Sequence record: DRR378314_434
Strand: one strand, 5' to 3'
DNA: 64,000 nucleotides
The position numbers and the translations under genes are program-made. The notes under the pieces were generated by a model. It was given only the letters and a program-made list of their open reading frames with translations, was not told the origin of the DNA and made no database searches. Shown here in pieces: positions 13,702 through 60,129 of the stretch (its first letter is position 1; every line of letters starts with the position of its first letter).

Positions 13702-13773
13702 TAAAGCTCCAGTTTATTTTTGTCGGCTATCTATACGTTTTATTTTGCAATTACGATCGTTTACAAATAACTT

Positions 13774-13792
13774 ATTGCGAACTATTATCATT
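13774..13792. promoter_or_regulatory. Fur box
   Basis: ATTGCGAACTATTATCATT, 14/19 match to AATGATAATCATTATCATT. Confidence 0.65.
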
Positions 13793-13834
13793 TGCGTTAG
13801 CTTGTTTAATCAAAGCCAGAATAAAGGATGCATA

Positions 13835-24894: not shown

Positions 24895-25938
24895 CTAAAA
24901 GTTACTGTCCAGTTTGGTCATTACATAGTGGATAAAATCAAGCGATGTCTTTAATTTTGCAAACTCCTGCTCGCCATCCAAGGCTTCAATAAATGCCTCA
25001 TAGTCGCATATCTTAGCCTCTTTCGTTGTAGCAATAAGGTCTTTATCCGCAAACGAAAGACACAAGTCACCGGCGTCATTCACCTCGAAATTCACTTGCG
25101 ATAATACCTCAGAGAACTCTTCAAAAGCGATAACTACGGTCGGTTTCATCGCTTTTGCAGCTTCTAATTCACTGGCAGCGACCACTTTAAATTCTTTATT
25201 AAAACGGTTGGATGCTGGCTTATAAGTGGCTCTTCCTGCCCCCGGAAGGCCAAAACCTACAACAGCAACATTGCGTAACAAGCCGAAAGGCAAAATAAGC
25301 CCGTAGCGATCATAATGATCGTACACTTTCTTTCTGCGTGTTCTTACCTCACCTTTGCTGTCCGTATAGGTTTCAGTGACAATGCGCTCATCAACATAGT
25401 GAAAGTGATAATACTGATACTGAAACGAATATTCGCTGCCACTGTAGCTTCCATCATAAAGCGCACGAATTTCACGTTTGTAATTCCCCCGATTAAAATC
25501 ACTGAAGCGCTGCTGGAACTCATTTGATGCGGCTCTGCTTTCAAATACAGCGGGCGACAAGTCGTTGTCCAGTAAACCATCGCGTTGCAGTAAAGCATGC
25601 GACGCCTTTGTCATCAGCCGGCCCGGGTAAAAAGCGGTTATTCCGGCAACCAAAGTTAAAACACTACCTACGGCCAGAATAATCCAGGTACTTTGCTGAA
25701 AGTGTTGCCACTGAGACCAGTCCCAGTAAGTTAATGCGGCAGTTGCTAACAAAAACACGGCAAAAGCTATCCAGTAAGCTTTCATATTAAACTGGTAGCT
25801 TCCGGAAAAGGCTTTCAGATCATCAATAACCACGTCGAGATTCTCTCGGGTACGGCTATTATGCGCCTGAGTTTCTGTGCGCTTTAGTAATTCAATAAGG
25901 GCTTTGTTGTTTTTCTGATAGAGCACGGCAATCAACAT
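24895..25938 (-). CDS. Membrane protein co-transcribed with lemA (DUF3137-like position and topology)
   Basis: Two TMs then a soluble domain; lies 10 bp upstream of lemA on the same strand. Confidence 0.65.
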   Translation of the reverse strand: MLIAVLYQKNNKALIELLKRTETQAHNSRTRENLDVVIDDLKAFSGSYQFNMKAYWIAFAVFLLATAALTYWDWSQWQHFQQSTWIILAVGSVLTLVAGITAFYPGRLMTKASHALLQRDGLLDNDLSPAVFESRAASNEFQQRFSDFNRGNYKREIRALYDGSYSGSEYSFQYQYYHFHYVDERIVTETYTDSKGEVRTRRKKVYDHYDRYGLILPFGLLRNVAVVGFGLPGAGRATYKPASNRFNKEFKVVAASELEAAKAMKPTVVIAFEEFSEVLSQVNFEVNDAGDLCLSFADKDLIATTKEAKICDYEAFIEALDGEQEFAKLKTSLDFIHYVMTKLDSNF

Positions 25939-32452: not shown

Positions 32453-34764
32453 TGGTTTGCCTCCTGCAGTGATTCAAAATCGGGCATAGGGGGCAATTGG
32501 TGAGTCCATTCTTTTCTAACCGCATCGCCTTTAGCCACGAGTTGCTCAACTTTGTCTACTCGCCCACCAATGCGTAAAAAACCATCGTCGGACACAAAAT
32601 CTCTAAACTTTGAATCTAAGTAGTCAACAGAATAGCGCTCTCCGTTCTGTGGCAGGACCGCTAGCGCCTCTCCTTTGGCGTTCAAAAAGCGGTACTTTCT
32701 CAAAAAGTCACTCATAGCAACTTCAGCTTGCTGCTCATCCCAGTCTTCCCCCAGCAAAGCGTCAACCGGAATCATCCAGCTGTGCTCACCTAAGCTTATA
32801 TCCACCGGTTGCCATTCTGGTTGCCCGTCGCAACTAAGCCCAACTTCAACTTCGGTATCATAGAAAAAACGCTGCACGCCATCTTCAGTCATTAGTTGGT
32901 AGACCACTTTTTTCGGCATTTTTAAATGCGACACGACATTACGTCTATTCGGGTCAGGGTTTTCTTTCATGGCCAAGTCAGTTTTATTGTCGTCACGATT
33001 AGAAGTGACACTTACCTGACAGACCGCAGATTGCTCAGGAGTTAAGGTCAGATATAACTGTGGGCGGTCAAAGCTTTCCGGTTCTACTTCTTCTAGTTCG
33101 GAAGAGCTAAACTTTAAATCCTGATCATTCACTGATACTTCTCTGGAATCAGACTTAAACAGAGGAACAGTATCAACCGGAGCTATCGTCGTATCGCTTC
33201 TGAGCGTTTCCTCATCATAAAAAGTCACCTTTTTCTCAGAAATTTTATTATCCGTAACACGGTTGAATTTAAGTTCAATCGTCTCAGGCAGTTCGTCCTC
33301 AAAAGCTATTTTTAGAGTCACGGCATAATCGCCTCTTTTTGCAATAGCCAAAGCTCTACTCTCTGCACCGGATACCCAGTCAGGTGCCGATATATCCTTG
33401 TCGTAACTTAAAACCGCGCCACTCACGCCATTAACTTGACTATCAAAGTAGGCGTCATTAGTTGCAGCTAATTTTAGTTCGAAAACTCTCTCGTCTTTGG
33501 TTGGTACCAAAGTAGCTTTGGCACCTTGCATTTCTATGCTCGAACCATCTTTCTTTATGGGAAACTCAACAATTTCGTAGCTTGTTTCATAGCGTTCCAG
33601 AGTCGCTTCTATTGCTCTCATCTGCTCGATATTATCGACGATATCGGTCCACCCTAAAGGAAGAACATTGGCTACCGTTTCCGTGTTTTCATTATTCATA
33701 TCCGTATAGGTAAAGGTTCCATTTTCATGAAGCTCAATATCCAGGGTGTTTCCCTTGCCATCTTTGGCTTTAAGGTCTTTCAATTTTATCGACATCGAGC
33801 CCATACTTTCAAAGCTCACCCCAGGATGGCTATATTTCAAAGAAATACGACCGCCGTATAAATCCATTTGCCCTGAATCATTAGCAAATATTTCGGCGTC
33901 GGTCGCTTGGTTGTTTGGGTTAAGTTCACTAAAGTCCGTATTATCAACTGTAATAGGCTCGTCATAACCTAAGTATTCAAGATCCTGACCATACAACCAT
34001 TCTTCAGGAAATATAGACGTGACCATTCGCATAGAGCCATTGGATGCAGGCACTCCTTCGGGAAGTGGCATATCCATAATCATGGTCAAGCGTTCAGTCC
34101 AGCCGGTCGCACGCTCTAAAATGACATAACCAAAAACACGTGCTTCATCATTTTCGCCAGCCGCGGATAAAGTCACCGTGCTATCGGTAAAGTCTTCAAC
34201 CGTGAAGGTTATTTTAGGTAAAGGGCTTTTTAATTCGATTACCTGTGTGGCGCCTTTCTCCACCTTTAAACCAGTTATAAAACCTGGGCGCCCGAACTCG
34301 TCGTTTAATATTTCCTGCAGAGGATCTATTCCCTGCTTACGAAAGTCTTCCGGTTCCTCGTGAATGATAAAATCCACCATTGCGCTGGTGTCTTTATCAA
34401 TATCAACAGTAAATCCGGCATCCATCATTTTCCGAATGCTATCACCGGAGCTGCCGCGCCCCTCGTCTTCAAAGCTTGTGAAATCTCCTTGCGGATACTC
34501 CATTCGCATATACTGAGGTTTCATTCTTATGCTGTAGACATCGGATTTATCGGACACTTCATAGTCCAGTAACATCATAGTTTTGAGTCTTTCTGAACGT
34601 TTACCGTAACTGCTCTCAACTTTGATGTTGGTATCTGAGTAAAGTTGGTAACGTCGCTGTTCACCGTCCTCTGGTTTAAACGATAAGGTCGTTGGAGGGC
34701 CGCTTTCAGAACAAGCTACAACAAGAAGAGCTGAAAAAGCCAAGAGTGATAGACGCCCTAACAT
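32449..34764 (-). CDS. Large hypothetical lipoprotein
   Basis: Lipobox VVAC; 771 aa, acidic; ATGA overlap with the MORN gene. Confidence 0.75.
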   Translation of the reverse strand: MLGRLSLLAFSALLVVACSESGPPTTLSFKPEDGEQRRYQLYSDTNIKVESSYGKRSERLKTMMLLDYEVSDKSDVYSIRMKPQYMRMEYPQGDFTSFEDEGRGSSGDSIRKMMDAGFTVDIDKDTSAMVDFIIHEEPEDFRKQGIDPLQEILNDEFGRPGFITGLKVEKGATQVIELKSPLPKITFTVEDFTDSTVTLSAAGENDEARVFGYVILERATGWTERLTMIMDMPLPEGVPASNGSMRMVTSIFPEEWLYGQDLEYLGYDEPITVDNTDFSELNPNNQATDAEIFANDSGQMDLYGGRISLKYSHPGVSFESMGSMSIKLKDLKAKDGKGNTLDIELHENGTFTYTDMNNENTETVANVLPLGWTDIVDNIEQMRAIEATLERYETSYEIVEFPIKKDGSSIEMQGAKATLVPTKDERVFELKLAATNDAYFDSQVNGVSGAVLSYDKDISAPDWVSGAESRALAIAKRGDYAVTLKIAFEDELPETIELKFNRVTDNKISEKKVTFYDEETLRSDTTIAPVDTVPLFKSDSREVSVNDQDLKFSSSELEEVEPESFDRPQLYLTLTPEQSAVCQVSVTSNRDDNKTDLAMKENPDPNRRNVVSHLKMPKKVVYQLMTEDGVQRFFYDTEVEVGLSCDGQPEWQPVDISLGEHSWMIPVDALLGEDWDEQQAEVAMSDFLRKYRFLNAKGEALAVLPQNGERYSVDYLDSKFRDFVSDDGFLRIGGRVDKVEQLVAKGDAVRKEWTHQLPPMPDFESLQEANQ

Positions 34765-38139: not shown

Positions 38140-40191
38140 TTAAAACTCGTACGACAGTTCAAAGCGAACGGTTCTTGGCTCCATCACATGATAATGCAAG
38201 TCTTCCACACCGGTTGCCGGCTCGCCCGGCAACCGCGATGCGTAAAAGTAGTCTATGTCATGATCATTGCTGTCAAACACATTAAGAACCTGTAAGTTTA
38301 CCGCCCATGCGTTCCACTTTTTACCCAGCATAAAGTTTACAACCGTCGAGCTGTCGGAACGCTCTGAATTATCTTCAACCAACGGGCGCTCTCCTAAATA
38401 GCGTAGACGAACCGTTGAAAACCAGTTGTCATCAAAGCGTTTTGTCACGCCCAGTTGAAGAATGTCTTCCATAGCACCGGGTATTTCCGGTTCAAGTACA
38501 TTGCCGTCATCAAACTCAGCATCTGTATAAGCGTATTCAAGATCAAAGCTTAGCTGGTCGCTGTAATTGTAATAAGCAGCCAGTTCGATGCCCTGTCGTT
38601 TTGATGGACGGCTGGCTTCTGTATTACCAGCGTCTCCCACAAACAATAACTCGCTGTCCTGTTCTAATGACCACAGTGCCAGTGAACTGTTAAATTTCGC
38701 ACTAGGCCGCCAACGCACGCCAACTTCGTAACCAAAGGTTCTGACCAACGGATCAACCGAATCTACAGCGTCACCATTATTCGGATCAACACTTATCACC
38801 GTGCCTCGTGCGTCGTTGGAATGAAAACCCTGCCCGGCTGACAGATACAACTCCGCGTCGTCAGTTAATAAGTAGTTCGCACTTCCTTTAAAAGACCAGA
38901 GGTCATCCGAAGTTTGACCGTTGTTCGGAGCAAGTGCCACGTTATAGATATTGGTATCAAGTAAGGAGTTAACGTCAAAATCAAAGTAGTCATAGCGCAA
39001 TGAAAGGTTGGTTCTCAGCCTGCTGGTCCACTGATAGTCGTAACTGGCATAAACGCCGGTGCTCCATTCGTTAACCTTGTCGCTTCTTACCGTTCCAAGC
39101 CTTTCACGTTGTTGCGACTTGTGCAGGCCGACTTCGCCAATGTCGTCGTAGCGGGTCGAGAAGCCCAGAGTCAGGTTGTCATCCGGATGCCAGCTACCTG
39201 ATGCTCCGTAAATTTTTCTGTCATCAACTTGTTCAAACTGGTCGCCCAGCACAGGATCATCAAGGTAATACGTGAAGTTTGAGAATAACGACAACTCGTA
39301 GTCGATAATATAGGTAGTTAGCGCGTAATCGGCCGTTGTGTAAATGGCATTGACGCTGTATCGGTGCGTTTTTCCGCCCAGAGTGTCATCAATAGAGCCC
39401 AGCTCGTCAATAATACCCTGATTAACCGCTCGTGCAGGAATTTGGTCAGCACTGTTCCACTCGTTTTCGTAACCCATAGCTCCGAAAGTAAGAACGCCCT
39501 CAGAAGTACGGATGCTGTGACGTACTACCGCATTGATTTTATCAACGTCCTCGTCAATATCCGTCCAGGGGCCATCATAAGTCTGGTACTCAAGCCCGTA
39601 TAATGTCGTGTTAGTACTGTTCTGAGAAACGCTGTCAGCCAGCAAAACCCGCTGGTAGGCGTCTTCGCCCAGGCTCACTTTTGCAAGGCCTTTTTTCCGC
39701 TTCATCTGGGTACTAAAACCCACGCTGCCGGCACTGGAAAAGTCGCCCACGTCGCTGTGATAAGAACCTTTCTGATAGGTCACCTGTTCAATCAGCTCAG
39801 GAATCAGAAAGTTAATATCGGTATAGCCGTGACCGTGTCCATGAGTTGGCATATTAACCGGCATACCATCAACATAAGTGGCGAAATCGGTGCCGTGGTC
39901 AAGGTTGAAGCCACGTAAAAAGTACTGGTTCGCTTTGCCGCTGCCACTGTGCTGAGTTGCACTCATTCCCGGAATCAGTTCCATTAACTCGCCGGTGCGC
40001 AACATAGGTCTAATTTCTATTTCAGGTTGCCCCAGCACACCTTCAGAAGCAGACATGGCCTGCCCCAGCAAATTCGCCTGATGCCCTGAAACTAATATTC
40101 GTTCAATACCATCGTGCGCAGTTGCCTGCCCAGAGTTAAACAAAGCACCTGAAACAACCACAGAAAGAAACGCGAGCTTAAAAGTCTTCAT
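38140..40191 (-). CDS. TonB-dependent receptor with His-rich plug
   Basis: QHSGSGKANQYFLRGFNLDHGTDF, MPTHGHGHGY; C-terminal PRTVRFELSYEF. Confidence 0.9.
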   Translation of the reverse strand: MKTFKLAFLSVVVSGALFNSGQATAHDGIERILVSGHQANLLGQAMSASEGVLGQPEIEIRPMLRTGELMELIPGMSATQHSGSGKANQYFLRGFNLDHGTDFATYVDGMPVNMPTHGHGHGYTDINFLIPELIEQVTYQKGSYHSDVGDFSSAGSVGFSTQMKRKKGLAKVSLGEDAYQRVLLADSVSQNSTNTTLYGLEYQTYDGPWTDIDEDVDKINAVVRHSIRTSEGVLTFGAMGYENEWNSADQIPARAVNQGIIDELGSIDDTLGGKTHRYSVNAIYTTADYALTTYIIDYELSLFSNFTYYLDDPVLGDQFEQVDDRKIYGASGSWHPDDNLTLGFSTRYDDIGEVGLHKSQQRERLGTVRSDKVNEWSTGVYASYDYQWTSRLRTNLSLRYDYFDFDVNSLLDTNIYNVALAPNNGQTSDDLWSFKGSANYLLTDDAELYLSAGQGFHSNDARGTVISVDPNNGDAVDSVDPLVRTFGYEVGVRWRPSAKFNSSLALWSLEQDSELLFVGDAGNTEASRPSKRQGIELAAYYNYSDQLSFDLEYAYTDAEFDDGNVLEPEIPGAMEDILQLGVTKRFDDNWFSTVRLRYLGERPLVEDNSERSDSSTVVNFMLGKKWNAWAVNLQVLNVFDSNDHDIDYFYASRLPGEPATGVEDLHYHVMEPRTVRFELSYEF

Positions 40192-40835: not shown

Positions 40836-40874
40836 ATAAAGTCTCCAAAAATTAAATTAAACACCGATAACGCA

Positions 40875-40893
40875 AATGATAATGGTTTTCATT
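40875..40893. promoter_or_regulatory. Fur box
   Basis: AATGATAATGGTTTTCATT, 16/19 match to consensus, upstream of the PepSY-TM operon. Confidence 0.85.
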
Positions 40894-40954
40894 AATATAA
40901 ATTCTGTGGTTTAATACTGCTCTGACAAAAACTAAACAAATCACTTTTACTATT

Positions 40955-43151: not shown

Positions 43152-45323
43152 TTAGAACTTGTAGTTAAAGCTCAAAGTGTAATCGCGTGGTGTGCCATAA
43201 CGGTAGCCATAGGCGAACCCAGCCTGACTGTAATATTTCTCATCAAATAAGTTCGCTACGTTAAGTTGTAAGGTCATGTTATCTGAGAGTTCATAACGCG
43301 CCATTAAGTTAACCAACGAGTAGCCTTTCTGGATAAATTTCTCTAATTCGCCAGTTCCAGGGTTGGTTCCCATGGAATAAACCTCGTCCCGCCAGTTTAC
43401 GCCACCACCAATAGTAAGTTCAGGCAAATGTTCAACAAACTGATAAGTAGTAAACAACTTAAACTGCTTATCAGGGGTGTCGGTATTCACCGGGTTTCCC
43501 GAAGCATCTTCAGCGTCAAATTGAGAGTACCCTAACGAGATATTCCAGCCATCAACAGGTTGCCCTACAATCTCGGCTTCAAAGCCTGTGCTTTCTGTGC
43601 CTTGTGCTGCAACATAAGCAGTTTGTAGTTCAGGCGTCGGTTCATGGTTTGGATCCAGTACTGCCAGATTATCTTGTTCTATTTTAAAAACGGCAATAGA
43701 GGTATGCAGTCGGTCATTTAAGAACGTGCTTTTAAGTCCAATTTCACTGCTTTGTCCCTCTAAAGGGTCAAGAAACGCGCCAGTAGTATCTTTTGCGTCC
43801 TGCGGCTTAAAAATCTCTGTATAACTGGCGTATATCCGATGATGATCCGTTAAGTCGTAAAGCAAACCTGCGTATGGGACGAAAACGCCTGAATCTCCAT
43901 AATCAGTTACTGTACCGTAACTGATACCAGCACGATCCCAACTGGATACCCGACCACCAACCACAAACTTCAAACTGTCACTGAGCGATAATCGAGTAGC
44001 CGCGTAGAAGCCCTTTTGATCAGTTTTCATATCTTCTCCGGGGCTTGGTTCGCTCTCCCACTCCGGCTCTTGCAAATTAGTCCATTCGTAAAAATTATCG
44101 ACGTCTACTCGATCATATCCACCACTCATATCACCGCCAATTGGCGTAAAAGTATTGGCAAAAGCTTCCTGGTCGCTGTACAAGGCACCGATAACCACAT
44201 CGTGCAGTTGACCAAAACCGGAGAACTGTCCTTTTAGCTGCATATCAAAACTACTCTGGCTGTTTTCACCATCGCTATGATAACGCTGGGCGTTTAAACC
44301 CGCTCCGGTCTCTTTATCCAACGTGCCGTAAACGTAGAGTAACTTTGAAGTTTTATCGGCATCCATACGATTGTAGTTAGCGATAAGCTCCCAGCCATTA
44401 CTAAACGCATGGTTCAGGTTAACGAAATAGTTGGTGTTCGTCGTTTCCCAGCGAGTCCAGTCTGCACCAGTCGTTTTGGAAACATCCCAATCGGTTTGAG
44501 TACCATCGGAGAAAAACGCCGGCAGTAGTCCCCAGGTAGCCCCTTTCGGGTTATTGTGCTGATAACTGCCACCAACTCGCAATAAAGTTTCAGGTGTTAA
44601 ATCAGCTTCCATCACGCCGTAGAAAATTTCCTTATTTTCTTCTAAATAATCCACGTGTGAGTCGCTGTCATGTACTTTTATCACGGCCCGGCCGCGGATG
44701 TTGCCACTGTCGGTCAGAGCACTGCCAACATCGGCTGTTACCTGCCTGCTGTTCCAACGACCCACTGATGCATTGACGTAGCCTTCAAGTTCTTTACTGT
44801 CAGCATGTTTACGAACCAAGTTAATTGAGGCTGATGGATCACCAACTCCCGTCAGAAGTCCGGTCGCGCCGCGCACAAATTCAATACGTTCGTAAATAGC
44901 GACATCGGCTACTGTTTCGCCAGCATCTCCAGCGAGACTCCATGACGTAGGAACACCATCAATTTGGTAATTATCAATCTCAAAACCACGGGCATAAAAA
45001 GTATTACGCACATTGTCCATTTCTGACGCCGAAACACCGACCGCGTTATTTACCGCTTCAAGTACCGTGTCGATATTCTGATCAAACATTCTTTCGTCGG
45101 TAAGAATACTGACCGACTGAGGCGTCTCACGCAGTGTTAAGCCGAGCCCGGTAGCGGAATCAAGAGTCTGACTGACGGTATATTTTCCCGTCACTTCTAT
45201 TCTCTCAAGCTTTTCATCATTGGTTGGCTTTTCTTTTTCCGCGCTTTGCGGTGCGGCAAATGTTGCAACTGGATTCAAGGCTATTGCGATAGCCGCTGCC
45301 AGCGGAAGGACACGCACGTTCAT
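43152..45323 (-). CDS. TonB-dependent ferric-siderophore receptor (FhuE/FptA-like)
   Basis: LRETPQSVS, RGATGLLTGVGDPSASINLVRK, NLFDEKYY, terminal F. ATG at 45323 after GGAG. Confidence 0.9.
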   Translation of the reverse strand: MNVRVLPLAAAIAIALNPVATFAAPQSAEKEKPTNDEKLERIEVTGKYTVSQTLDSATGLGLTLRETPQSVSILTDERMFDQNIDTVLEAVNNAVGVSASEMDNVRNTFYARGFEIDNYQIDGVPTSWSLAGDAGETVADVAIYERIEFVRGATGLLTGVGDPSASINLVRKHADSKELEGYVNASVGRWNSRQVTADVGSALTDSGNIRGRAVIKVHDSDSHVDYLEENKEIFYGVMEADLTPETLLRVGGSYQHNNPKGATWGLLPAFFSDGTQTDWDVSKTTGADWTRWETTNTNYFVNLNHAFSNGWELIANYNRMDADKTSKLLYVYGTLDKETGAGLNAQRYHSDGENSQSSFDMQLKGQFSGFGQLHDVVIGALYSDQEAFANTFTPIGGDMSGGYDRVDVDNFYEWTNLQEPEWESEPSPGEDMKTDQKGFYAATRLSLSDSLKFVVGGRVSSWDRAGISYGTVTDYGDSGVFVPYAGLLYDLTDHHRIYASYTEIFKPQDAKDTTGAFLDPLEGQSSEIGLKSTFLNDRLHTSIAVFKIEQDNLAVLDPNHEPTPELQTAYVAAQGTESTGFEAEIVGQPVDGWNISLGYSQFDAEDASGNPVNTDTPDKQFKLFTTYQFVEHLPELTIGGGVNWRDEVYSMGTNPGTGELEKFIQKGYSLVNLMARYELSDNMTLQLNVANLFDEKYYSQAGFAYGYRYGTPRDYTLSFNYKF

Positions 45324-45367
45324 ACCTTTTTTACTCCCTTGGTTAATATTGGAATCAAAATAACACA

Positions 45368-45386
45368 ATTACGAATCGTTATCATT
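45368..45386 (-). promoter_or_regulatory. Fur box
   Basis: Minus strand AATGATAACGATTCGTAAT, 13/19 match, overlapping a TACGAAT...ATTCGTA palindrome, upstream of the siderophore receptor. Confidence 0.65.
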
Positions 45387-45404: not shown

Positions 45405-45554
45405 CCAACTACTTGCCGCAACATTGTTATTAAGGTAATGGTTGGTGGTAATGCCGAAAAGCTTGAAGAGGATGACTACGGAGATATATTTCAGGTGGTG
45501 GTAAACGATGACAGCATCGTGACAAACCGGCTTTATGTAGCGGCCGTACAATGA
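45405..45554 (+). pseudogene. Probable 3' remnant of a histidine-phosphatase (PGM-like) gene
   Basis: Plus frame MVGGNAEKLEEDDYGDIFQVVVNDDSIVTNRLYVAAVQ* resembles, from recall, the C-termini of short gammaproteobacterial histidine phosphatases. No catalytic N-terminus; in-frame stop at 45402. Confidence 0.4.
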
Positions 45555-51253: not shown

Positions 51254-54178
51254 TCAAAACTGCCCGCTCACCCCAAGCAAAAATGTCCGTCCGTTAGAAG
51301 TTGTGTTGTAAGCCCGGTCACTGGAGTCACTGTAAAGCTCTTCGCGTACATTGGTCAGGTTCAGGGCTTCAAGAGTTAACTTAAAGTTATCAGACAGTTG
51401 GTAATGAGCGGCTGCGTCAACATAAGTGGTGTCGTGGTAGCCGGATTCATCCTGGTCGGTATTCCCCGCCTGAACTGACAAAATGTAGTCACTGCGGTAG
51501 GCCGATGAAATACGAGCTGACCAATCTTCAGCTTCATAATAAAAGGTCAGGTTGTAACTTTGGTTCGACAGCCCGGCAAAGGTTTTTACCTGATTTTCCC
51601 CTGTGCCCTGTACGTCGCGGTACAGCGTATCGCCGTCTGCCCAGGTATAGTTGGCAATCATGCCGAGTCGGTTGAAGGGCTCAGGCAGAAAATCAAAATC
51701 CCGCGAGAACGCAAATTCAGCGCCCTGAATAACAGAAGAATCGGAGTTTTCCGGTGTGGTGACAATAAATAAGTCGTCTACAGACTCCCCTTCCTGCAGC
51801 AAGGCTTCGGGAAGCCCTAAACTGCCGTAACGCAACAGCTCAGTTTTTTCGACAATGAAGTTATCAATGTTTTTATGAAACAGTGCTAAAGATATAAACC
51901 CTTGCTTATTAAAATACCATTCAATAGCAGTGTCTATGTTTATCGATTCGAACGGCTGCAGAAAGGGGTTCCCTAATCCTATTGAACCAATGTCGCCGTC
52001 ATCGCGCGAGGCCTGCGATACATTCGCAGAAAAGGACAATTTATCTATAGAAGGTCGAGTAATATTTTTGCTCGCTCCAAAACGCCATAAAACATTATCG
52101 GTAATATCCAGAACCATATTCAGGCTGGGTAACCAATCGGAGTAGTCCCGCTCTATTTCCGTGTAAATACCTTTTGAAATACCAGCAGAGGACAAAGTTG
52201 TCTCGAAAAAACGCGCGCCGGTACTCAACAGCAGCGTTTTACCGAACATTTGCGTATCAAAATCGAAAAGAAAATAAGCAGCGTCCGTTTCCTCCTCCAC
52301 CGAATAATTAGACGTATCAATAATAGACCCTTCACCCAATCTATAGCCCGCTAAACCGTAATGTTGCTGAAGCTGAGCTAAGTCGCCCTGCAACCAATTG
52401 AAGTCGGGGTGTTGAGTATAAACATCCGTATACTCAGGTGGTAAAAACAAATTTCCTTCATTTTCTGGCGTCAGGCCGTTGGTCGGAAAGTCTCCCTGTA
52501 CTCGTTCATGCCCGTCATTTGACAGTTTCTTATGACTGACACCCAGTTTCAGAGCGTTTTTGGGCGTTAATCGGTAGTCGAAATCAGCTTTAAACGTGAG
52601 CATGTCCGAAGAAATCTCGTTTTCCTGAAAATAGAGGTCTTTCACTCGAAACGCTGTTGGATCAGTAGTATCAAATTCAGGTGAACGGCTAAGCCCGTAA
52701 AAACGATCTTTCCTGAAATCGGTGATAATATCCACGCCGTCCGTAATGATATTGACCTTGTTCAGCTTAGGCTGGCGGTAGTCAGACGAATTAACTCCGA
52801 GAAGAAAATTAAACGAAATATCAGGGCTTGTTTGCCAAAAAGAATTAAAGGTTATTTGTTTAAATTCCGATTCGTTATAGTCCTGCCGGGTTTCAGCTCG
52901 CCACGTCGCGTCCTTATATTCGGCATAAACTACTTCTTTTTCACTGTCATTATTTACCCATTCCAGAGCTTTCACCTGACGATTATTTTTTACCGCAATA
53001 TGGTGTTCATCTAAATCATTGGTCAGTCGGTTCAATAAAATATCGACCGTGCTGATAAAGTTTTCATTAGGCTGATACTGCAGCGATGCGGTAATTCCCA
53101 GTCGAGTCTGGTCGTTATTCCATAGCGAATAACGGTGTCCGCGGGGAAACCAGAACTCGCCGTTAGCTAATTTCTCTGACAGCGCAGGATTATCCGGCCC
53201 AACATAAGCTTTATTTTCTTTACGCCAGCGCGTGGTGTTGGTTCCATATTCAGTTGTATGCCGTTCACTGTAGGCCATTGATACCAGCGCACCAAAGCTG
53301 CCCCAGGTATTCGCTATCATTCCGGCCACACGGGGGTCGTAATGTTGGCTGTTGGAATTGTAGGCCTGTCGGTAGGAAAAAGCTGACGTAAAGTCCTTGT
53401 AGTCTTGGGGCTTTGGTGTAAATAACTCTACCGTGCCGCCAATGCCGCCCTCTTCCATACGCGCCGAGTAAGACTTTTTCACATCAATGCGATTAAACAG
53501 TTCAGAGGCAAAAATATTAAAATCGAACGCCCGGCTGCGGCTAACTGAACCGCGGGCATCCATTGGTGATGATGTTATTCCCAAGGCCTCCATGCCATTG
53601 ATATGCACACGGGTAAAGTCCGGCCCCAGCCCGCGCAGAGATATTTGACGCCCTTCACCGGCTTCCCGGGTAATGGAAATACCAGGTACGCGCTGCAGTG
53701 AGTCAGCTAAGTTCAAGTCCGGAAAATCAGCAATATCTTCGGCCAGTATCGAGTCCTGAGAAACCATTGCCAGACGCTTATATTCCCGCGCTTTAAATAA
53801 AGAATCTCTGAATCCGGTGACGGTAATTTCTTCAATAACCTGGTTAACGGGTTTGCTTTCTGCTGCAGGCTCCGGGGACTTAACCACATTGTCCTGACAG
53901 GTTTCAACCAACCAGCCGGAGGCGACATTACTCGCGCATAAGTTGCTGTCTTTCAGCAACTCGTCGAGCAATTCCTGAGCCGTAAACGAACCTTTTAGTG
54001 CCTCAGTGTGTTCATCAGAGACTAAAGCAGGGTCGAACAATATGGTCTGGTCGGTTGTGCGGGAAAACTGAGTTAATGCGTCTTTTAAAGGTTGCGCCGC
54101 AAAAGTCACATCGAACTTTGTGCCTTCTGCGGCCAGGCTTAAACTGGAAATAAGTAGTAGCCAGCTAAATCTACGCAT
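51254..54178 (-). CDS. TonB-dependent transducer with N-terminal signalling (STN-like) domain
   Basis: FAAQPLKDALTQFSRTTDQTILF N-terminal extension; TonB box EEITVTG; terminal F. Confidence 0.9.
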   Translation of the reverse strand: MRRFSWLLLISSLSLAAEGTKFDVTFAAQPLKDALTQFSRTTDQTILFDPALVSDEHTEALKGSFTAQELLDELLKDSNLCASNVASGWLVETCQDNVVKSPEPAAESKPVNQVIEEITVTGFRDSLFKAREYKRLAMVSQDSILAEDIADFPDLNLADSLQRVPGISITREAGEGRQISLRGLGPDFTRVHINGMEALGITSSPMDARGSVSRSRAFDFNIFASELFNRIDVKKSYSARMEEGGIGGTVELFTPKPQDYKDFTSAFSYRQAYNSNSQHYDPRVAGMIANTWGSFGALVSMAYSERHTTEYGTNTTRWRKENKAYVGPDNPALSEKLANGEFWFPRGHRYSLWNNDQTRLGITASLQYQPNENFISTVDILLNRLTNDLDEHHIAVKNNRQVKALEWVNNDSEKEVVYAEYKDATWRAETRQDYNESEFKQITFNSFWQTSPDISFNFLLGVNSSDYRQPKLNKVNIITDGVDIITDFRKDRFYGLSRSPEFDTTDPTAFRVKDLYFQENEISSDMLTFKADFDYRLTPKNALKLGVSHKKLSNDGHERVQGDFPTNGLTPENEGNLFLPPEYTDVYTQHPDFNWLQGDLAQLQQHYGLAGYRLGEGSIIDTSNYSVEEETDAAYFLFDFDTQMFGKTLLLSTGARFFETTLSSAGISKGIYTEIERDYSDWLPSLNMVLDITDNVLWRFGASKNITRPSIDKLSFSANVSQASRDDGDIGSIGLGNPFLQPFESINIDTAIEWYFNKQGFISLALFHKNIDNFIVEKTELLRYGSLGLPEALLQEGESVDDLFIVTTPENSDSSVIQGAEFAFSRDFDFLPEPFNRLGMIANYTWADGDTLYRDVQGTGENQVKTFAGLSNQSYNLTFYYEAEDWSARISSAYRSDYILSVQAGNTDQDESGYHDTTYVDAAAHYQLSDNFKLTLEALNLTNVREELYSDSSDRAYNTTSNGRTFLLGVSGQF

Positions 54179-54194
54179 TTTCAGATGACATAAT

Positions 54195-55154
54195 TCATGG
54201 TGTTAAACGAATCTGTTGAGGCAAATACTCAACGTTTAACGCATACATCTGACTCAACAGCTTTAAAGTTTGTTCCGTGTCATTCAGGCGAAAACGCCCT
54301 GCCACCTCCCGTGAGCCTAAGTTCGGATCAGCCAGTACAATAGGCGTTGAACTGTGGCGGTTAAGTCTCTCAATCAGATAAGTGAGATTCTCATTGCTAA
54401 TTTCTATCCAGCCCGAACGCCAATCTATCAGGTTGTTCACATCAACTTTTTGCACTACGCCAAAACGCCCACGGGACAAGCGCATCTTCTCCCCGGCTTT
54501 TAATAACACCGGGAAGCTTTCCTGCTCGGCCTGAACCTCAACAATACCTTCGTAAACGGTGACATCAATCTGATCCGTGCCGCGGTCGATATTAAATTCC
54601 GTGCCGACCGCCGTAACACTGGCATCACCAACACTAACCACAAAGGGACGTTTCTTGTCCTTAGCAACGGAAAAATACGCCTGACCTGACTCTATGTGCA
54701 GGTTTCTCTGCTGCTCGGAGTAGTTCACCATAACTTCACTTGAAAGCTGCAGTTGTAACGCACTGCCGTCGGATAACTGATGCGTATTTTCCGTCGGCGA
54801 CTGCGCAGTGAACACTGTCGGCTGCGGGGTTTCACTAAAGCGACCGGGCAACATGACGGTAATAGCAACAACCAACGCACAGGCTGTAGCTAAGCCCATT
54901 CCCCATTGAAACGCCTTTTTCACCGGACGTTTTTGTCGCTTTTTCAGTTGTTTGAAAGACTGCTCCAACGCAGGATCCTGCCAGGTAGCCAACATTGACT
55001 CAAATACCTGCTGATGTTTAACATCAGCCTCTAACCACTTAATAAAGCGTTTCCGGCAAAGAGTATTGAGTTCACCGTCAGAAAGCCGATCCATCCATTC
55101 CGCGGCTTCAGTGTAAATACTGTCTTGTGAGGTATTATTGACTGTCTCTTGCAT
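54195..55154 (-). CDS. FecR-family anti-sigma factor
   Basis: EAAEWMDRL...FIKWL...H, one TM, LSDGS, GQAYFSVAKDKKRPFVV, AVGTEFNI. Confidence 0.92.
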   Translation of the reverse strand: MQETVNNTSQDSIYTEAAEWMDRLSDGELNTLCRKRFIKWLEADVKHQQVFESMLATWQDPALEQSFKQLKKRQKRPVKKAFQWGMGLATACALVVAITVMLPGRFSETPQPTVFTAQSPTENTHQLSDGSALQLQLSSEVMVNYSEQQRNLHIESGQAYFSVAKDKKRPFVVSVGDASVTAVGTEFNIDRGTDQIDVTVYEGIVEVQAEQESFPVLLKAGEKMRLSRGRFGVVQKVDVNNLIDWRSGWIEISNENLTYLIERLNRHSSTPIVLADPNLGSREVAGRFRLNDTEQTLKLLSQMYALNVEYLPQQIRLTP

Positions 55155-55643
55155 CTATTTTGTCTTACTGTCTATGTAACGCTGAATGTCGGCCAGTGCC
55201 CGGGTTATGTGCCGGGTAACGGTTTCCATACTAATTCCCAGTTGTTCCGCAATAGCTTTGCGGCTCTCACCATGAAGCCGCCTCAGCTCAAACGCCCGCC
55301 GCCGTTGCTCAGGCATGTTTTCGAGCGCCTGAGAAATCAGCTCAATACGTTGCGCTTCTTCCAGCAAATATTCCGGGTTTGCTTTTGGTGAATCAAGGTT
55401 ATCGATATCGTCATCGCAGTCTACAGGGCGTGCTGTCAGCAGATTACGAGCCACCCGAATTGCATAGCCTAATGGATTGTTGATGGTACTTTTGCGAGAT
55501 TGCTCCAGTACCCGCGCCACAGACTCCTGATAAATGTCGGCGGCCTCTTCACTACACCGCGTCCGGCCGGAGAGGTAACGCCGCAACTGGGCGTTATTGG
55601 TTAAACAATCGTAGAGTTTACTGTTGTTTGCTTTATTGGACAT
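55155..55643 (-). CDS. ECF sigma factor (FecI-like)
   Basis: AADIYQES, ALENMPEQRRRAFELRRLHG...IAEQLGIS..TV. ATG at 55643 lies downstream of the predicted promoter. Confidence 0.9.
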   Translation of the reverse strand: MSNKANNSKLYDCLTNNAQLRRYLSGRTRCSEEAADIYQESVARVLEQSRKSTINNPLGYAIRVARNLLTARPVDCDDDIDNLDSPKANPEYLLEEAQRIELISQALENMPEQRRRAFELRRLHGESRKAIAEQLGISMETVTRHITRALADIQRYIDSKTK

Positions 55644-55684
55644 ATCAGCTGCTGGTGCACCCTGGCGTTTTGCTGAGATAGCCA

Positions 55685-55718
55685 AGGGTACACCTTCATT
55701 ATGACAGTTCTGTGGATC
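55685..55718 (-). promoter_or_regulatory. Pho box + -10 element (PhoB/sigma70 promoter)
   Basis: Minus strand GATCCAC-AGAA-CTGTCAT, exactly 10 bp, then TACCCT. Confidence 0.6.
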
Positions 55719-55741
55719 TCGTTCGCGTCGGGGCACCGAAA

Positions 55742-57199
55742 TCATTTTTGTTTGTCGATATAAACAGGGTTGCTGTAAAACCATAAGTCGGTCCACGGGT
55801 TCTCGCCTTTAACATCGGGTTGTGGCTCCAGCTCCTCTGCACGGTTGGTTCCGCGAACCCGCACATAACCCGCTGATGCTGATGCCGGTAATTCAAACGT
55901 CATCACCTGATAATTACCCTGACGACTCCGGTCACTTGGATAAAAACGCTTAATAACCTCAGTGGTCGGGTTTACATTATTACTCGTGAACCCTTTGTTG
56001 CCATGCACTTCACCATAAATGAGATCAACGCGCCCCACCGAGGGGTTATCGTCGTGATAATTTGGTGTGTCAGGGTCTAAAAAAGCAATAGTGACCGTGG
56101 CGGGTTTATCGTCGGTAACCAGAGTTTCACCAATGCTGGCGGTTTTTTCCGACTGCGACACGTAAACATAAAGCTCGGTAATAAGATCTCCCGTAGTAAC
56201 AAACACATTGCCACCGCGCAAACCGTTTAAAACACTGTCATAGTCCTGCTGAGCGTAAACATAAGTCTTAGCGTATTCTCCGGGCCAAAAGTCGGTACGG
56301 CCTTCGGTGTAATGTGCGTGGCTATCAGAAACTGCCGTAATGCTCCAGCGACGTCCTTCGCCTAAAAAGCTGTCCCATACGCCACCGACTATTGCCGTCA
56401 TCTGGTCAGTACCGCCGTGTGTCGGGTACCCATAGTATTCCGCCCGCATTCCTTCCGGATCAATTGACCCATCCGGGTTTATTGTCGCGGCCTGATGCCC
56501 GGGAATACCGGTCATCCCCGTAATGACATCCGGAGCGGTATCCTGCCACAGGCGCATTTTTTCAGGCGTCACTTTTTTAAAACGCCCCAATTTATCCGCC
56601 TGACGAGCCGGGTGATTCACCGAAAGCACCGGGCGCGGACTCATCGCCTGCATTGCATTCAGCGCTTTTAACATGAAGGCTTCAGTATCCCGCTCAAATT
56701 CATTAGGAAATGCTTCACGTCGGTTAAACTGGCTTTCTATTGTGTAGAGCTGCTGCGCTTCTTCATCGGTATGTGGAATAATTAAGGTGCTGTGGCGTGC
56801 ATTGGGGGTATCAAATTCCATTCCGTAAAACTGCAAAATACCCGGAACCGCTTTACGGGACGCAACCAGCTCAGGATAAGCCTGCTCTAAATTGACCCGA
56901 CTATGCTTCGGACCGCCATGGTCAGTTGTTACCATCCATTGCAAACCATGCTGTTTCGCCATTTGCGCATTCAGCGCGGTAAAATAATGAGCGTCACCAA
57001 ATAAAATGGGCGTGGGCGGTTGCGTACTGGTGTCCCACTTTGCACTAAATTTCCCATGAATATGGTGGTCACCCGCCAACCATTGTTTATTACCCGCAGG
57101 CTTAAAATCATAATTATCGGATGTTGAAACCGTCTTTGCACAGGCCGATAACAACGCCAGCGCGACGGCGGTACTTATAATCTTTTTTACTCGTGACAT
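55742..57199 (-). CDS. PHP-family metallo-phosphoesterase lipoprotein
   Basis: Lipobox LSAC; PHP motifs GDHHIH, TTDH, GMEF, NHP, SDSH. Confidence 0.82.
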   Translation of the reverse strand: MSRVKKIISTAVALALLSACAKTVSTSDNYDFKPAGNKQWLAGDHHIHGKFSAKWDTSTQPPTPILFGDAHYFTALNAQMAKQHGLQWMVTTDHGGPKHSRVNLEQAYPELVASRKAVPGILQFYGMEFDTPNARHSTLIIPHTDEEAQQLYTIESQFNRREAFPNEFERDTEAFMLKALNAMQAMSPRPVLSVNHPARQADKLGRFKKVTPEKMRLWQDTAPDVITGMTGIPGHQAATINPDGSIDPEGMRAEYYGYPTHGGTDQMTAIVGGVWDSFLGEGRRWSITAVSDSHAHYTEGRTDFWPGEYAKTYVYAQQDYDSVLNGLRGGNVFVTTGDLITELYVYVSQSEKTASIGETLVTDDKPATVTIAFLDPDTPNYHDDNPSVGRVDLIYGEVHGNKGFTSNNVNPTTEVIKRFYPSDRSRQGNYQVMTFELPASASAGYVRVRGTNRAEELEPQPDVKGENPWTDLWFYSNPVYIDKQK

Positions 57200-57217
57200 C
57201 TTATTTCTCTTTAAAGC

Positions 57218-57243
57218 AAAAACCGGGCTCATCTGAGCCCGGT
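57218..57243 (-). terminator. Intra-operon intrinsic terminator
   Basis: Minus strand ACCGGGCTC-AGAT-GAGCCCGGT-TTTTG. Confidence 0.8.
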
Positions 57244-57258
57244 AACATGTAAGGAAAA

Positions 57259-59940
57259 TCAGAACTGTGCAGTAATGCCCAGCATCACTGTTCTGCCACT
57301 GGTAATGGTGTTATACGCGCGGTCATGAGAGTCGCTGTAAGACTCTTCACGTACGTTCGTCAGGTTGATACCTTCCAGGCTCAACTTAACGTTGTCCGTC
57401 AGCTGATAAAACGATGAGAAGTCGACATAGGTTGTGCCGTGATACCCGCTTTCATCCTGGTCTGCACTAGACGTCGCGCCGCTGCCATAACGACTGCGAT
57501 AAGCCGCTGATACGCGGGCGCCCCAGTTTTCCACTTCGTAATACAAGGTGAAGTTGTAACTGTTTTTCGACAATCCAGAGAACGGTTTAACCTGGTCATT
57601 TCCTTCAATACCATAAATGTTCCGGTAAAGAGATTCGCCATCCGCGTAGGTGTAGTTAGCGATAACACCTAAGTTGTTAAATGGTGCAGGAAGAAAATCT
57701 AAGTCTCTTGAAAATGCCAGTTCAACACCCTTAATGGTCGAAGAATCGACATTTTCCGGACGTTCAAGATAGAAAATACTGTCCATGTTTTTATCTGCCG
57801 GCAACAGTTCTTCCGGCAGGCCCAGACTTGAATAAACCACTTCGGTGGTCGTACCGACAATAAAGTTGTCGATGTCTTTGTGGAATATGGCCGCAGACGC
57901 ATAACCAACATCTTCAAAGTACCACTCAATAGCAGTGTCTAAGTTAGTTGATTCAAACGGATCCAGATTCGGGTTGCCCATGGATACACTGGTAATCGCC
58001 TCCCCCGAGGTTTGCGAGACCGAGGCGTTATAACTCAGCGAGCCCAATGAAGGACGGGTAACATTCTTAGTAGCAGCAAAACGCCATAAAAGATCCGGAC
58101 TCAGTTCATACACCATATTCAGGGTTGGAAGAACATCGGAGTAAGTGCGGGCTGTCTCAATATCTACCCCTCCTGAGACACCAGCTGATGTAATTTCAGT
58201 TTCAAAGTAACGTAAGCCGGTACTTATGCGTAACGGACGACCGGCAACGCTGCTTTCAAAACCATATTGAGCGTAAACCGCGTTGGTCTCTTCCGTTACC
58301 GGCGACTTGTCGTTTTCTGACAAGTCAGAATCGTCCAAACGGGTTCCCTGCAGGCCATAGTAAGCCAGCAAATTACCTAAATCCGCCTGAATCCAGTTTT
58401 GGTCCAGATGCTGGTTAAATACGTTAACCAAATCATCCGTTAACGTCAGCTCGCCGGCATTTTGTGGTGCTTCGTTCTGCGCATTACTTCTGGTTAGCTG
58501 ATAAGCACTGTTCTCAAACTTCTTATAGTTAGCGCCAAAGGTTAATTCACCGGTGTCGCCAATAAAGTAGCTGAAATCAACTTTAGCGATATCAAAATCA
58601 TTCGTGATGTAGTTTTCCTGCATGTAGATGTCTTTAACTTCAAAACCTTCCATGCTGGTTACATCAAAGTTCGGCGAGGTGCTAATGCCATAAAAACGAT
58701 CGCCGCGGAAGTCAGTCATAATGTCGACTTTATTCTTCGCGTGAATATTAGATTTAAGAACCTGTGGTTGCTCAAAATCCGATGAACTGGTGCCAACCAT
58801 GGCCGACATGCTGAAGTCAGGCGTTAACGACCAGTCCATGGTTAAGGTGTACTGGTTAAACTCTGATTCGTTACGGCGACGGGTATTTTCGTTACGCCAG
58901 GTGGCATCTTCATAACTTGCGTAGAGAACTTCTTTTTGTCCGTCGTTTTCTGTCCATTCAAGCTCTTTCACAATATCGTTATCTTTAACCGCAGAATGAT
59001 GCTCGTCGTAGTCATTTTCGAGTTCAGAATGCATTAAATCAAACGAGAAGCTCAGTTCTTTGCTGGGTTTAAACTGAAGCGCTGTCGTAATGCCTAAACG
59101 TTTTTGTTGGTTATTCCACAGTGAATAACGGTGCCCACGGGGGAACCATAACTCACCTGAGTCCAACTCTGCCTGTAATTCGGTGTCGGTTGGATCAGCG
59201 GCTGTTTTTCCGCCTTCCCGGCGCCAACGTGTGGTATTAGTGCCGTACTCTGTGGTTGAACGCTCGCTGTAAGCAACTGAAGCCAGTGCACCAAAATTAC
59301 CCCAGGTATTAGAAATTAAACCGGCGAAACGTGGATCCGTTTCTTCACTGTTATCGTTGTAACCACCTTTTAACGAAATTGCACTTTTAGCACCGTCATA
59401 GTCAAAGGGCTTAGCTGTATAAAGACCAACAGTACCGCCGATACCGCCCTCTTCCTGGTCTGCCGAATAGGTTTTGTTCACATCAATGCGGTTGAACAAT
59501 TCAGAAGCAAAAACATTAAAGTCGAAACTACGCGTGCGGCTCGCTCCGCCTTTAGCATCCATCGGCGACGCTGATGTGCCCATGGCCTCCATACCATTGA
59601 CCTGAACACGGGTAAAATCAGGACCTAATCCACGCAGTGAAATTTGGCGCCCTTCTCCCCCTTCACGCGTAATGCTGACACCAGGAACGCGTTGCAACGA
59701 ATCGGCAAGGTTTAAATCAGGAAAATCGGCAATGTCTTCCGCAAGGATTGAATCACGAGAAATAATCGCTTCGCGCTTAAAGTCTTTGGCTTTAATTAAT
59801 GAGCTTCTGAACGAAGTCACTTCAATCACTTCCATGGCTTCTTCATCTACTGCCTGCTCCTGAGCTAGCACCGTATTTGAATAACCAAAAGCACTGACGA
59901 TGGCTGTCGCTAAAACTGTTTTTCTAAATGAGTGGTTCAT
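57259..59940 (-). CDS. TonB-dependent receptor without signalling domain; paralogue of 51254-54178
   Basis: Signal peptide, EVIEVT TonB box, DSILAEDIADFPDLNLADSLQRVPG, terminal F. Confidence 0.92.
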   Translation of the reverse strand: MNHSFRKTVLATAIVSAFGYSNTVLAQEQAVDEEAMEVIEVTSFRSSLIKAKDFKREAIISRDSILAEDIADFPDLNLADSLQRVPGVSITREGGEGRQISLRGLGPDFTRVQVNGMEAMGTSASPMDAKGGASRTRSFDFNVFASELFNRIDVNKTYSADQEEGGIGGTVGLYTAKPFDYDGAKSAISLKGGYNDNSEETDPRFAGLISNTWGNFGALASVAYSERSTTEYGTNTTRWRREGGKTAADPTDTELQAELDSGELWFPRGHRYSLWNNQQKRLGITTALQFKPSKELSFSFDLMHSELENDYDEHHSAVKDNDIVKELEWTENDGQKEVLYASYEDATWRNENTRRRNESEFNQYTLTMDWSLTPDFSMSAMVGTSSSDFEQPQVLKSNIHAKNKVDIMTDFRGDRFYGISTSPNFDVTSMEGFEVKDIYMQENYITNDFDIAKVDFSYFIGDTGELTFGANYKKFENSAYQLTRSNAQNEAPQNAGELTLTDDLVNVFNQHLDQNWIQADLGNLLAYYGLQGTRLDDSDLSENDKSPVTEETNAVYAQYGFESSVAGRPLRISTGLRYFETEITSAGVSGGVDIETARTYSDVLPTLNMVYELSPDLLWRFAATKNVTRPSLGSLSYNASVSQTSGEAITSVSMGNPNLDPFESTNLDTAIEWYFEDVGYASAAIFHKDIDNFIVGTTTEVVYSSLGLPEELLPADKNMDSIFYLERPENVDSSTIKGVELAFSRDLDFLPAPFNNLGVIANYTYADGESLYRNIYGIEGNDQVKPFSGLSKNSYNFTLYYEVENWGARVSAAYRSRYGSGATSSADQDESGYHGTTYVDFSSFYQLTDNVKLSLEGINLTNVREESYSDSHDRAYNTITSGRTVMLGITAQF

Positions 59941-60029
59941 GTTGGTTCCGTTATAGGTTGACTAAAAACGTTCAGTCCAAAAAACAGGGACACCTATAAA
60001 GAGCCGGGAAACCTCAAAAGCAGACAAGA

Positions 60030-60064
60030 ATTTTTGTGAAGAATCGATGAAGGATTTGTGAATA
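60030..60064 (-). promoter_or_regulatory. Three 11-bp-spaced Pho-box-like repeats
   Basis: Minus strand ATTCAC, CTTCAT, CTTCAC with cores at 60058-62, 60047-51 and 60036-40. Confidence 0.55.
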
Positions 60065-60100
60065 CAGGGAACTAACTACCTTTAACTATGCTGGCAGGAA

Positions 60101-60129
60101 TGTCGGCACCTTTCTTCTTGGTACCGACA
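60101..60129 (-). terminator. Hairpin downstream of cytochrome b561 gene
   Basis: TGTCGGCACC-N9-GGTACCGACA near-perfect stem. Confidence 0.5.

Follow-up and report, generated by a model that had tools for sequence, protein, structure and literature searches.

What could a bacterium gain from five consecutive genes that join two TonB-dependent receptors and a phosphoesterase to a sigma factor and its anti-sigma factor, and which ligand would they serve? The question is raised by the minus strand of DRR378314_434 at positions 51254–59940 (open reading frames, ORFs) of the window, i.e. the whole stretch of 64,000 nt that was analysed and to which all coordinates refer. The order given in an initial annotation, importer receptor, PHP enzyme, extracytoplasmic function (ECF) sigma factor, FecR and transducer receptor, was borne out by ORF calls and domain searches. 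With a probability of roughly 0.6, we read the locus as a phosphorus-scavenging cell-surface signalling cassette for the head groups of inositol-phospho(sphingo)lipids, most likely glycosylated ones of the glycosyl inositol phosphorylceramide (GIPC) type. Its most likely role would be to let a phosphate-short marine bacterium detect, import and dephosphorylate the sugar–inositol–phosphate head groups of plant- or algal-type sphingolipids. The cassette comprises the following features.

60036..60064, minus strand: three Pho-box half-sites with an 11-bp period, 5' of the importer (matrix score, homologous sites)
59997..60026, minus strand: putative ECF promoter, TGTCTG (60026–60021), 16 nt, GCTCTTTA (60004–59997), starting 9 nt past the last Pho half-site
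57259..59940, minus strand: TonB-dependent importer, 893 aa, without signalling domain (TIGR01782; profile searches, orthologues 59–99% identical)
57222..57243, minus strand: 9-bp GC-rich hairpin with T tail in the importer/enzyme gap, a terminator or mRNA-stabilising stem (consensus match only)
55742..57199, minus strand: metallo-phosphoesterase of the PHP fold, 485 aa, which carries an Ig-like domain at its C terminus and is a predicted lipoprotein (fold, invariant residues, lipobox)
55685..55718, minus strand: promoter of the signalling trio, Pho box (55718–55701), 10 nt, -10-like hexamer (55690–55685) (conserved spacing)
55155..55643, minus strand: FecI-like ECF sigma factor, 162 aa (profile searches, start-site check)
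54195..55154, minus strand: FecR-like anti-sigma factor, 319 aa (exceeds the Pfam cut-offs for FecR and DUF4880)
51254..54178, minus strand: TonB-dependent transducer, 974 aa, STN domain (about 53846–54136) plus importer-paralogous barrel (profiles, trees)

Both receptors score above the TIGR01782 cut-off of 310 bits (importer 650, transducer 597) and share 56% identity across 881 residues; judged by sequence, importer and sensor receptor are paralogues. The transducer has a full plug and barrel, unlike the barrel-less VreA of Pseudomonas aeruginosa, and it alone carries an N-terminal STN signalling domain, none being found in the importer. Its own STN score is 22.3 bits, under the cut-off of 28.4; aligned transducer N-terminal extensions gave a Pfam STN match at E ≤ 0.1 in nine of ten cases, and the extension profile matched the signalling domains of HasR, FoxA, PupA, FpvA and FecA (E 4e-11 to 4e-6). 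In barrel-only trees, the Idiomarina, Pseudoalteromonas and Alteromonas transducers cluster with their own importers and the Rheinheimera transducers with Rheinheimera importers, while a single group of all seven transducers was rejected (p-AU 7e-8, from a smaller IQ-TREE run beside FastTree, for a grouping by function tested with the FastTree outcome known beforehand). These groupings indicate that the sensor barrel was taken from the importer at least twice, or was kept similar by conversion. Since the sensor barrel copies the importer barrel, both receptors probably bind the same ligand, and Arg/His/Trp-rich loop motifs are common to the importer, the transducer and the receptors of two related locus types (LacI-type and PI-PLC-type, see below), while being absent from pectin-type relatives. 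The FecI-like ECF sigma factor, whose start was corrected to ATG 55643 and whose gene is followed by that of the FecR anti-sigma factor, contains Pfam regions 2 and 4.2, at scores that pass the cut-off, and stays under every equivalog cut-off, FecI included, the FecI and FecR equivalog matches being weak.

How would such a cassette be switched on? Pho-box-like elements had been claimed before both transcription units. A matrix that owes nothing to the cassette, built from 14 sites 5' of pstS, phoB and phoX in five genomes, gave the two window sites 10.2 and 10.7 bits (training sites 15–22), corresponding to ranks 12 and 7 of 127,964 positions, with the importer site as the second-best triple site in the window. 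The claim is upheld through relatives: the window boxes are convincing only because homologous sites score high, at least 10 bits being reached in 11 of 14 importer regions (median 11.4) and 11 of 13 sigma regions (median 13.1), compared with 2/9 LacI-type receptor regions (median 3.8) and 7.7% of 612 background upstream regions (median 1.1). The best Pho-like match in the window (45508–45525, minus strand) is a chance match that relatives do not share; it sits in a short coding-like remnant (45452–45553, plus strand), in which synonymous-looking changes in relatives abolish the match. A textbook pattern of two half-sites was discarded, as it gave 61 matches against 43 expected and neither cassette site was among them. 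Exactly 10 nt past the Pho box of the sigma gene, TAnnnT is found in 8 of 13 related loci, and the pstS, phoB and phoX references have A2/T6 at the same position in 9/9 cases; by its promoter, the sigma gene would be under ordinary PhoB–sigma70 control.

Boxes bound by OmpR-family regulators resemble one another, and on account of this likeness the 11-bp repeats might bind another member of that family, the cassette then serving carbon or some other need; the weak window sites and the carbon-type sister loci would agree with this. We consider it very improbable, given that the half-site variants match those at pstS, phoB and phoX of the same genomes, that the spacing from box to -10 equals that of the references, that the cassette is without any sugar-catabolic gene, and that related trios adjoin genes for PAP2 phosphatase and PhoX. 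Pho-linked signalling for organic phosphorus is, in our judgement, very probable.

Upstream of the importer, the Pho half-sites form part of a composite element, in which they are followed by 9 nt, TGTCY, 16–18 nt and a CTC-containing block, the 9-nt spacer being kept in 19 of 20 instances from 14 loci. Of 20 sigma-bearing genomes, 18 have the element no more than about 11 kb from the sigma gene, a count that is partly circular as the pattern was built from loci overlapping the tested genomes; its confinement to the locus (one or two copies, none elsewhere in these genomes) is not circular. The other 381 genomes gave a match in 11, similar to the reversed control (15/401). Among metagenome loci fetched later, 11 Pho-type importers had it, as against none of ten LacI-operator loci. 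It also precedes the gene for an EEP-jacalin phosphoesterase in L012–L014 and the sigma gene in L011–L013, and the genes that follow it encode receptors, phosphoesterases and sigma factors only. The TGTCY/CTC element is a putative promoter read by the cassette sigma factor; a short ECF-only pattern was too loose for defining a regulon. For the sigma-VreI targets of P. aeruginosa, a Pho box followed by ECF -35/-10 elements and a requirement for both PhoB and the sigma factor have been described (PMC4971064), and by this analogy an AND gate of PhoB and ECF sigma at the importer is quite probable. The circuit proposed in the initial annotation, with PhoB acting on the sensing trio and the sigma factor on importer and enzyme, thus fits the conserved Pho boxes, the PhoB–sigma70 spacing and the importer element.

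FecI/FecR-like proteins are usually linked to iron (PMC9249621, 10.1101/2019.12.11.873521), and the cassette could in principle be an ordinary iron-carrier system of the FecIRA kind with the enzyme as a passenger. No Fur box was found 5' of the importer or the sigma gene, the best matches reaching 11 and 10 of 19 positions of the consensus; no iron signal was seen, in line with what had been claimed. The receptors moreover belong to TIGR01782 and not to siderophore models, and the Pho boxes are conserved, leaving this the least credible of the alternatives, with hardly any weight. Of three Fur boxes reported at other promoters in the window, one is a strong match (40878, 15/19) and the other two were unconfirmed in a simple scan. 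The former site (40866–40896) lies 5' of a PepSY-TM gene, between TonB-dependent receptor genes at 38140–40191 and 43152–45368 (FhuE-like). A paper on the PhoB regulon of Caulobacter and six of its seven supplements contain no FecR, FecI or PHP entry.

What would the enzyme act on? The PHP protein has no Pfam match, stays under the cut-off of NF038032 (CehA/McbA metallohydrolase domain; 69.1 vs 80 bits) and found no match among PDB chains in sequence and profile searches. Its predicted model (pLDDT 90) shows a PHP barrel and an Ig-like domain, with the PHP phosphoesterases 3E38 (Z 18.9, rmsd 6.3, 250 aligned residues, 15% identity) as top fold match and 2ANU (Z 18.5, rmsd 2.5, 201 aligned) close behind. 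Nine residues, H46, H48, D69, H94, E128, H136, H196, D292 and H294, are invariant in 36/36 aligned homologues and are candidate metal ligands; they follow the ligand order of No-PDE (PMC11656708), as matched by motif order and not by superposed coordinates. The protein thereby displays the distorted (beta/alpha)7 fold and the nine ligands of a trinuclear metal site that mark the PHP class. Its start was corrected, most likely to ATG 57199, where a lipobox is found, the upstream ATG falling within the hairpin. A lipoprotein signal is present in the window enzyme and, by eye, in most Alteromonadaceae copies; a strict lipobox pattern, which missed common variants, scored 32 of 75 copies. An Atlas search returned only unnamed and PHP-labelled clusters, with no functional lead.

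The enzyme resembles the secreted PHP-fold diesterases Sb-PDE, No-PDE and Elen0235, of which 3E38 is the only solved homologue, in its nine matching metal-ligand positions, although their natural substrates differ or are unknown (PMC5460133, PMC11656708). These characterised enzymes are broad (same sources), which suggests an alternative in which the cassette is a general phosphodiester scavenger for nucleic-acid fragments, glycerophosphodiesters or plain phosphatidylinositol products, with an Sb-PDE-like breadth that would make the sugar context of relatives irrelevant. Distant homologues that are fused to or adjoin unrelated phosphorus-scavenging enzymes agree with it. It is nevertheless improbable: near-identical PHPs are common to the sugar–inositol loci described below, the receptor clade falls in with receptors of LacI and PI-PLC type and has the loop motifs lacking in pectin-type ones, and among the annotated neighbours no gene for a nuclease, a nucleotidase or GlpQ turns up repeatedly. 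In L072, PHP forms a fusion with phosphatidylinositol-specific phospholipase C (PI-PLC), and in L075 with purple acid phosphatase. Across L072:4736-7270, L075:8732-11353, P0003, P0004 and P0008, the fusion partners are PI-PLC, purple acid phosphatase, membrane dipeptidase, TonB-dependent receptor and amidase; fusions known from a single contig may be read-through artefacts. In ten Bacillota loci (L033, L042, L043, L046, L055, L059, L060, L062, L065, L080), a HupE/UreJ-family membrane protein comes next after the PHP homologue, possibly for metal supply.

The case for a particular ligand comes from relatives. A sister receptor clade, 53–57% identical to the window receptor and without the sigma trio, is found in loci of which twelve were read, with annotations from Pfam and NCBIfam extended to the others by BLASTP; the labels UxaC, ManD, IolB, IolC, IolD, NagB and NagA are above cut-off, while UxuB, KdgK, NagK, NagX, NagP and mannose isomerase are below it. 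A 14-bp palindromic LacI-type operator occurs in 12/12 of these loci, with one to five copies per genome, all in one cluster, and none in the control (five genomes scanned). The twelve loci contain GH92 (12), PHP (11), mannose isomerase (10), uronate catabolism (UxaC/UxuB/ManD; 10), a GH28-like protein (9), GH89 with NagX (7), IolA with IolD (7), PI-PLC or EEP-jacalin (3) and GH115 (2), and in four of them the mannose, GlcNAc, uronate and inositol modules occur all together with PHP. Plant GIPC head groups are Man-GlcA-Ino-P or contain GlcN(Ac), and are freed as soluble glycans by phospholipase C (PMC11496612, PMC9113257). An inositol-lipid head group in the broad sense is a likely ligand, and the GIPC-type head group (Man or GlcN(Ac)–glucuronate–inositol–phosphate) is somewhat favoured within it. 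We know of no other common molecule that unites mannose or GlcN(Ac), glucuronate, inositol and a phospholipid bond. The initial annotation had called the phosphoester unknown; the sister loci point to head groups of inositol-phospho(sphingo)lipids, which were missing from the substrate panel that it suggested.

The same circuit might still serve another phosphorylated glycoconjugate, such as glycosylphosphatidylinositol (GPI) anchors, fungal mannosyl inositol phosphorylceramide, yeast phosphomannan or phosphorylated N-glycans. GH92 and mannose isomerase are the most constant sugar genes, and two loci hold only a receptor, PHP, GH92 and a GH28-like gene. GPI anchors consist of mannose, non-acetylated GlcN and inositol phosphate, a make-up that would suit NagX, GH89 and PI-PLC. 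To our knowledge, however, none of these molecules contains glucuronate, which leaves the uronate catabolism in 10/12 loci and GH115 in 2/12 unaccounted for, and phosphomannan would leave the iol genes (7/12) and PI-PLC unexplained. We therefore hold a non-GIPC glycoconjugate to be unlikely, if less so than a general diesterase. An argument that 2-O-linked glucuronate blocks PI-PLC and so creates the need for PHP was dropped, as a review gives the linkage as alpha(1,4) (PMC8553973).

The enzymes of the Pho-type and LacI-type loci intermingle in the tree (LacI-type as one clade, p-AU 3e-34; Pho-type as one clade, p-AU 0.046) and reach 90% identity across types (L036, LacI, vs L015, Pho), so that the enzyme moves between carbon and phosphorus control. 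Among the receptors, the clade next in distance (42–47% identity) adjoins Ca-dependent PI-PLC in 12/12 loci (12 of the 17 matches listed), five of which have the same operator and six a sigma gene, and receptors at 33–38% are found in pectin loci; a descent of the receptors from those for uronate oligosaccharides would fit this series. The nearest genome (G001, 94% DNA identity to the stretch) has PhoB, PstS and PhoX and no IolD match, in keeping with a phosphorus-only use. The best reading would be a GIPC-type utilisation locus cut down to phosphorus use, which is turned on by low phosphate and ligand together. That Alteromonadaceae possess a hitherto overlooked family of GIPC-type loci in two interchangeable forms, one under LacI control that consumes the sugars and inositol and one under PhoB plus ECF, with duplicated-receptor sensing at the cell surface, that takes phosphate only, is about as likely as not.

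Several of the LacI-operator loci are candidate complete GIPC utilisation loci (L250–L262 from G1125, G1126, G1127 and G1129, as well as L006–L010, L032–L036, L041, L051, L069, L181–L183, L192 and L205). The Tat-type GH28-like protein (L008:13952-15625 and relatives; 9/12) and GH115 (2/12) never occur together in these LacI loci, and both are present in G505; the former may be an alternative uronic-acid-removing enzyme. The secreted phosphoesterase of the EEP family that bears a mannose-type jacalin domain (L013:11466-12812, L012, L014, L036, L165) is a candidate inositol-phosphoceramide phospholipase C. A second signalling family (L190–L203, L246, L247, L287, L289, L290) combines PI-PLC, a calcineurin-like enzyme of about 595 aa and an importer with its own sigma–FecR–transducer set, and has divergent TGTCCC-type promoters around shared Pho-like half-sites. 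For this calcineurin-like enzyme no informative PDB match was obtained, and a likeness to the Botrytis GIPC phospholipase C was unsupported.

A number of observations weigh against the GIPC-type reading. The window cassette itself holds no sugar, inositol or phospholipase gene, and G001 gave no match to IolD, PF16670 PI-PLC or EEP-jacalin (the last searched without a positive-control genome); the substrate is for this reason transferred from relatives (receptor 53–57%, enzyme 53–59% identical), across 40–45% sequence divergence. The 24 comparison loci (8 of the 15 and 12 of the 17 matches listed, and 4 earlier loci) are kin and several are probably duplicates, so that their counts are not independent tests. 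On the regulatory side, the window Pho sites are weak on their own, the composite-element count is partly circular as stated, and contigs of RNA runs X1–X4, from one sample, cover genes, spacers and flanks evenly and are uninformative on transcription. L011–L014 combine the same importer with an unrelated transducer (25–30% identical), and distant PHP homologues adjoin PhoD, phytase, polyphosphate kinase or HupE-like genes without inositol context. In each of G774 and G775, a PHP-type signalling locus coexists with a distinct one of the PI-PLC type, which suggests that the ligands differ by type, e.g. glycosylated vs plain inositol phosphate. Finally, one algal GIPC is described without hexuronic acid (PMC8553973), and the marine ligand may consequently differ from the plant core.

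Under the GIPC-type reading, low phosphate would lead PhoB~P and sigma70 to transcribe the sigma, anti-sigma and transducer genes, as the promoter sequences suggest. Ligand on the transducer barrel would then, by analogy with FecIRA-type systems, make the STN domain pass its signal on to the anti-sigma protein and free the sigma factor, which together with PhoB~P would fire the importer promoter, as its sequence and the VreI analogy suggest; import would need both starvation and ligand, because the two act there jointly. The importer would carry the soluble head group into the periplasm, where the membrane-anchored, presumably trinuclear PHP would cut the phosphoester of the lipid, the released diester or the monoester, freeing phosphate for Pst uptake and leaving the head-group sugars unused. 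With the hairpin after the importer gene, importer mRNA probably exceeds enzyme mRNA.

The closest described parallel is PUMA3 (VreA–VreI–VreR; PMC4971064, PMC7035377), which likewise has PhoB-transcribed signalling genes, with receptor, sigma and anti-sigma factor in one unit, and a Pho box both at the signalling operon and before the ECF target promoter (seen here at sequence level, the arrangement being compared by description). It differs in that VreA lacks a barrel and is dispensable in vitro, in that its targets are secretion and virulence genes, and in that its signal is unknown (same sources), whereas the transducer of the cassette has the full barrel and is joined by an importer paralogue and a single hydrolase. 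The initial view of the architecture as new can stand, but double control by PhoB and an ECF sigma factor has already been described for sigma-VreI (PMC4971064). In its order of sigma, FecR at +1 and STN-bearing receptor at +2, the cassette is like FecIRA, Has and Fox of the ECF243 clade (PMC9249621, 10.1101/2019.12.11.873521), from which it departs in having Pho instead of Fur boxes, sensing and import split over two paralogous receptors, and a predicted non-iron ligand. It works like FecIRA signalling with VreI-type PhoB logic and is a member of neither as defined.

In Flavobacterium johnsoniae PUSI, a TonB-dependent importer induced on phosphate depletion is grouped with a PI-PLC of PF16670 and a phosphoesterase of PF00149 (PMC8115612), a pair of PI-PLC and calcineurin-like enzymes also found in the PI-PLC-type relatives. 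PUSI differs in its SusCD-type transporter and undefined ligand, with no ECF signalling described and no such PHP shown in the available part of that source; a SusD-like gene, the hallmark of Bacteroidetes Pus systems, is not found in the cassette. By function, Botrytis BcGIPC-PLC1, plant NPC4 and GIPC-PLD are comparable in that phosphate-bearing GIPC head groups are released or recycled, as plants do during phosphate deficiency, but these are eukaryotic single enzymes without an uptake or signalling system (PMC11496612, PMC8553973).

GIPCs are the most abundant leaf sphingolipids and carry phosphate (PMC8553973). In open-access full texts, most subscription papers lying outside, we found no bacterial locus for GIPC uptake, breakdown or utilisation, and PUMA3 was the only phosphate-linked cell-surface signalling system. 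The relatives point to a pathway, apparently undescribed, by which bacteria eat inositol sphingolipids. If true, this would be the first bacterial GIPC utilisation pathway, would give a phosphate-starvation cell-surface signalling system its first defined ligand, and would provide a widespread orphan PHP family with a natural substrate. One receptor–enzyme module also seems to have been rewired between carbon and phosphorus control, and sensors to have been rebuilt from the importer more than once. The ligand class, the promoter motif and the enzyme to which the locus points can each be put to a direct test.

The cassette is patchy in distribution. Among the best 80 of 212 PHP loci, the exact five-gene order occurs in five (Idiomarina twice, Pseudoalteromonas lipolytica, Alteromonas twice); in Rheinheimera, the trio lies upstream of importer and PHP, complete in seven loci and truncated at the end of the locus in another eleven, while L011–L014 have importer–PHP, one or two additional genes, sigma–FecR and a transducer of another clade. 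The neighbourhood comparison called for in the initial annotation hence showed an order conserved in three genera and rearranged in a fourth. The sigma gene is present in 20/401 genomes of the family and 3/23 of the genus, with 2/401 in an order-level sigma search and 2/350 in a class-level PHP search. G552 and G514 have the sigma gene without importer and PHP at the locus, where genes for PAP2 phosphatase, PhoX or EEP-jacalin are found instead, with a stop inside the sigma match in G514, and G649 has an importer without adjoining PHP. The nearest named relatives by enzyme are Idiomarina loci (94% identity). In three of four close relatives, the DNA in common runs from the transducer stop to about 60075–60105, just upstream of the Pho boxes, and the cassette is for this reason taken as a discrete unit that includes its own promoter; its GC content did not differ from that of the flanks.

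The record of L007 is labelled Flavobacterium, yet its receptor and PHP fall among proteins of Alteromonas; a wrong label or a transfer is possible. Elsewhere in the window, the 771-aa ORF at 32449–34764, which like those of 347 aa (24895–25938) and 169 aa (13745–14254) has no Pfam match, adjoins a MORN-repeat gene (30728–32452).

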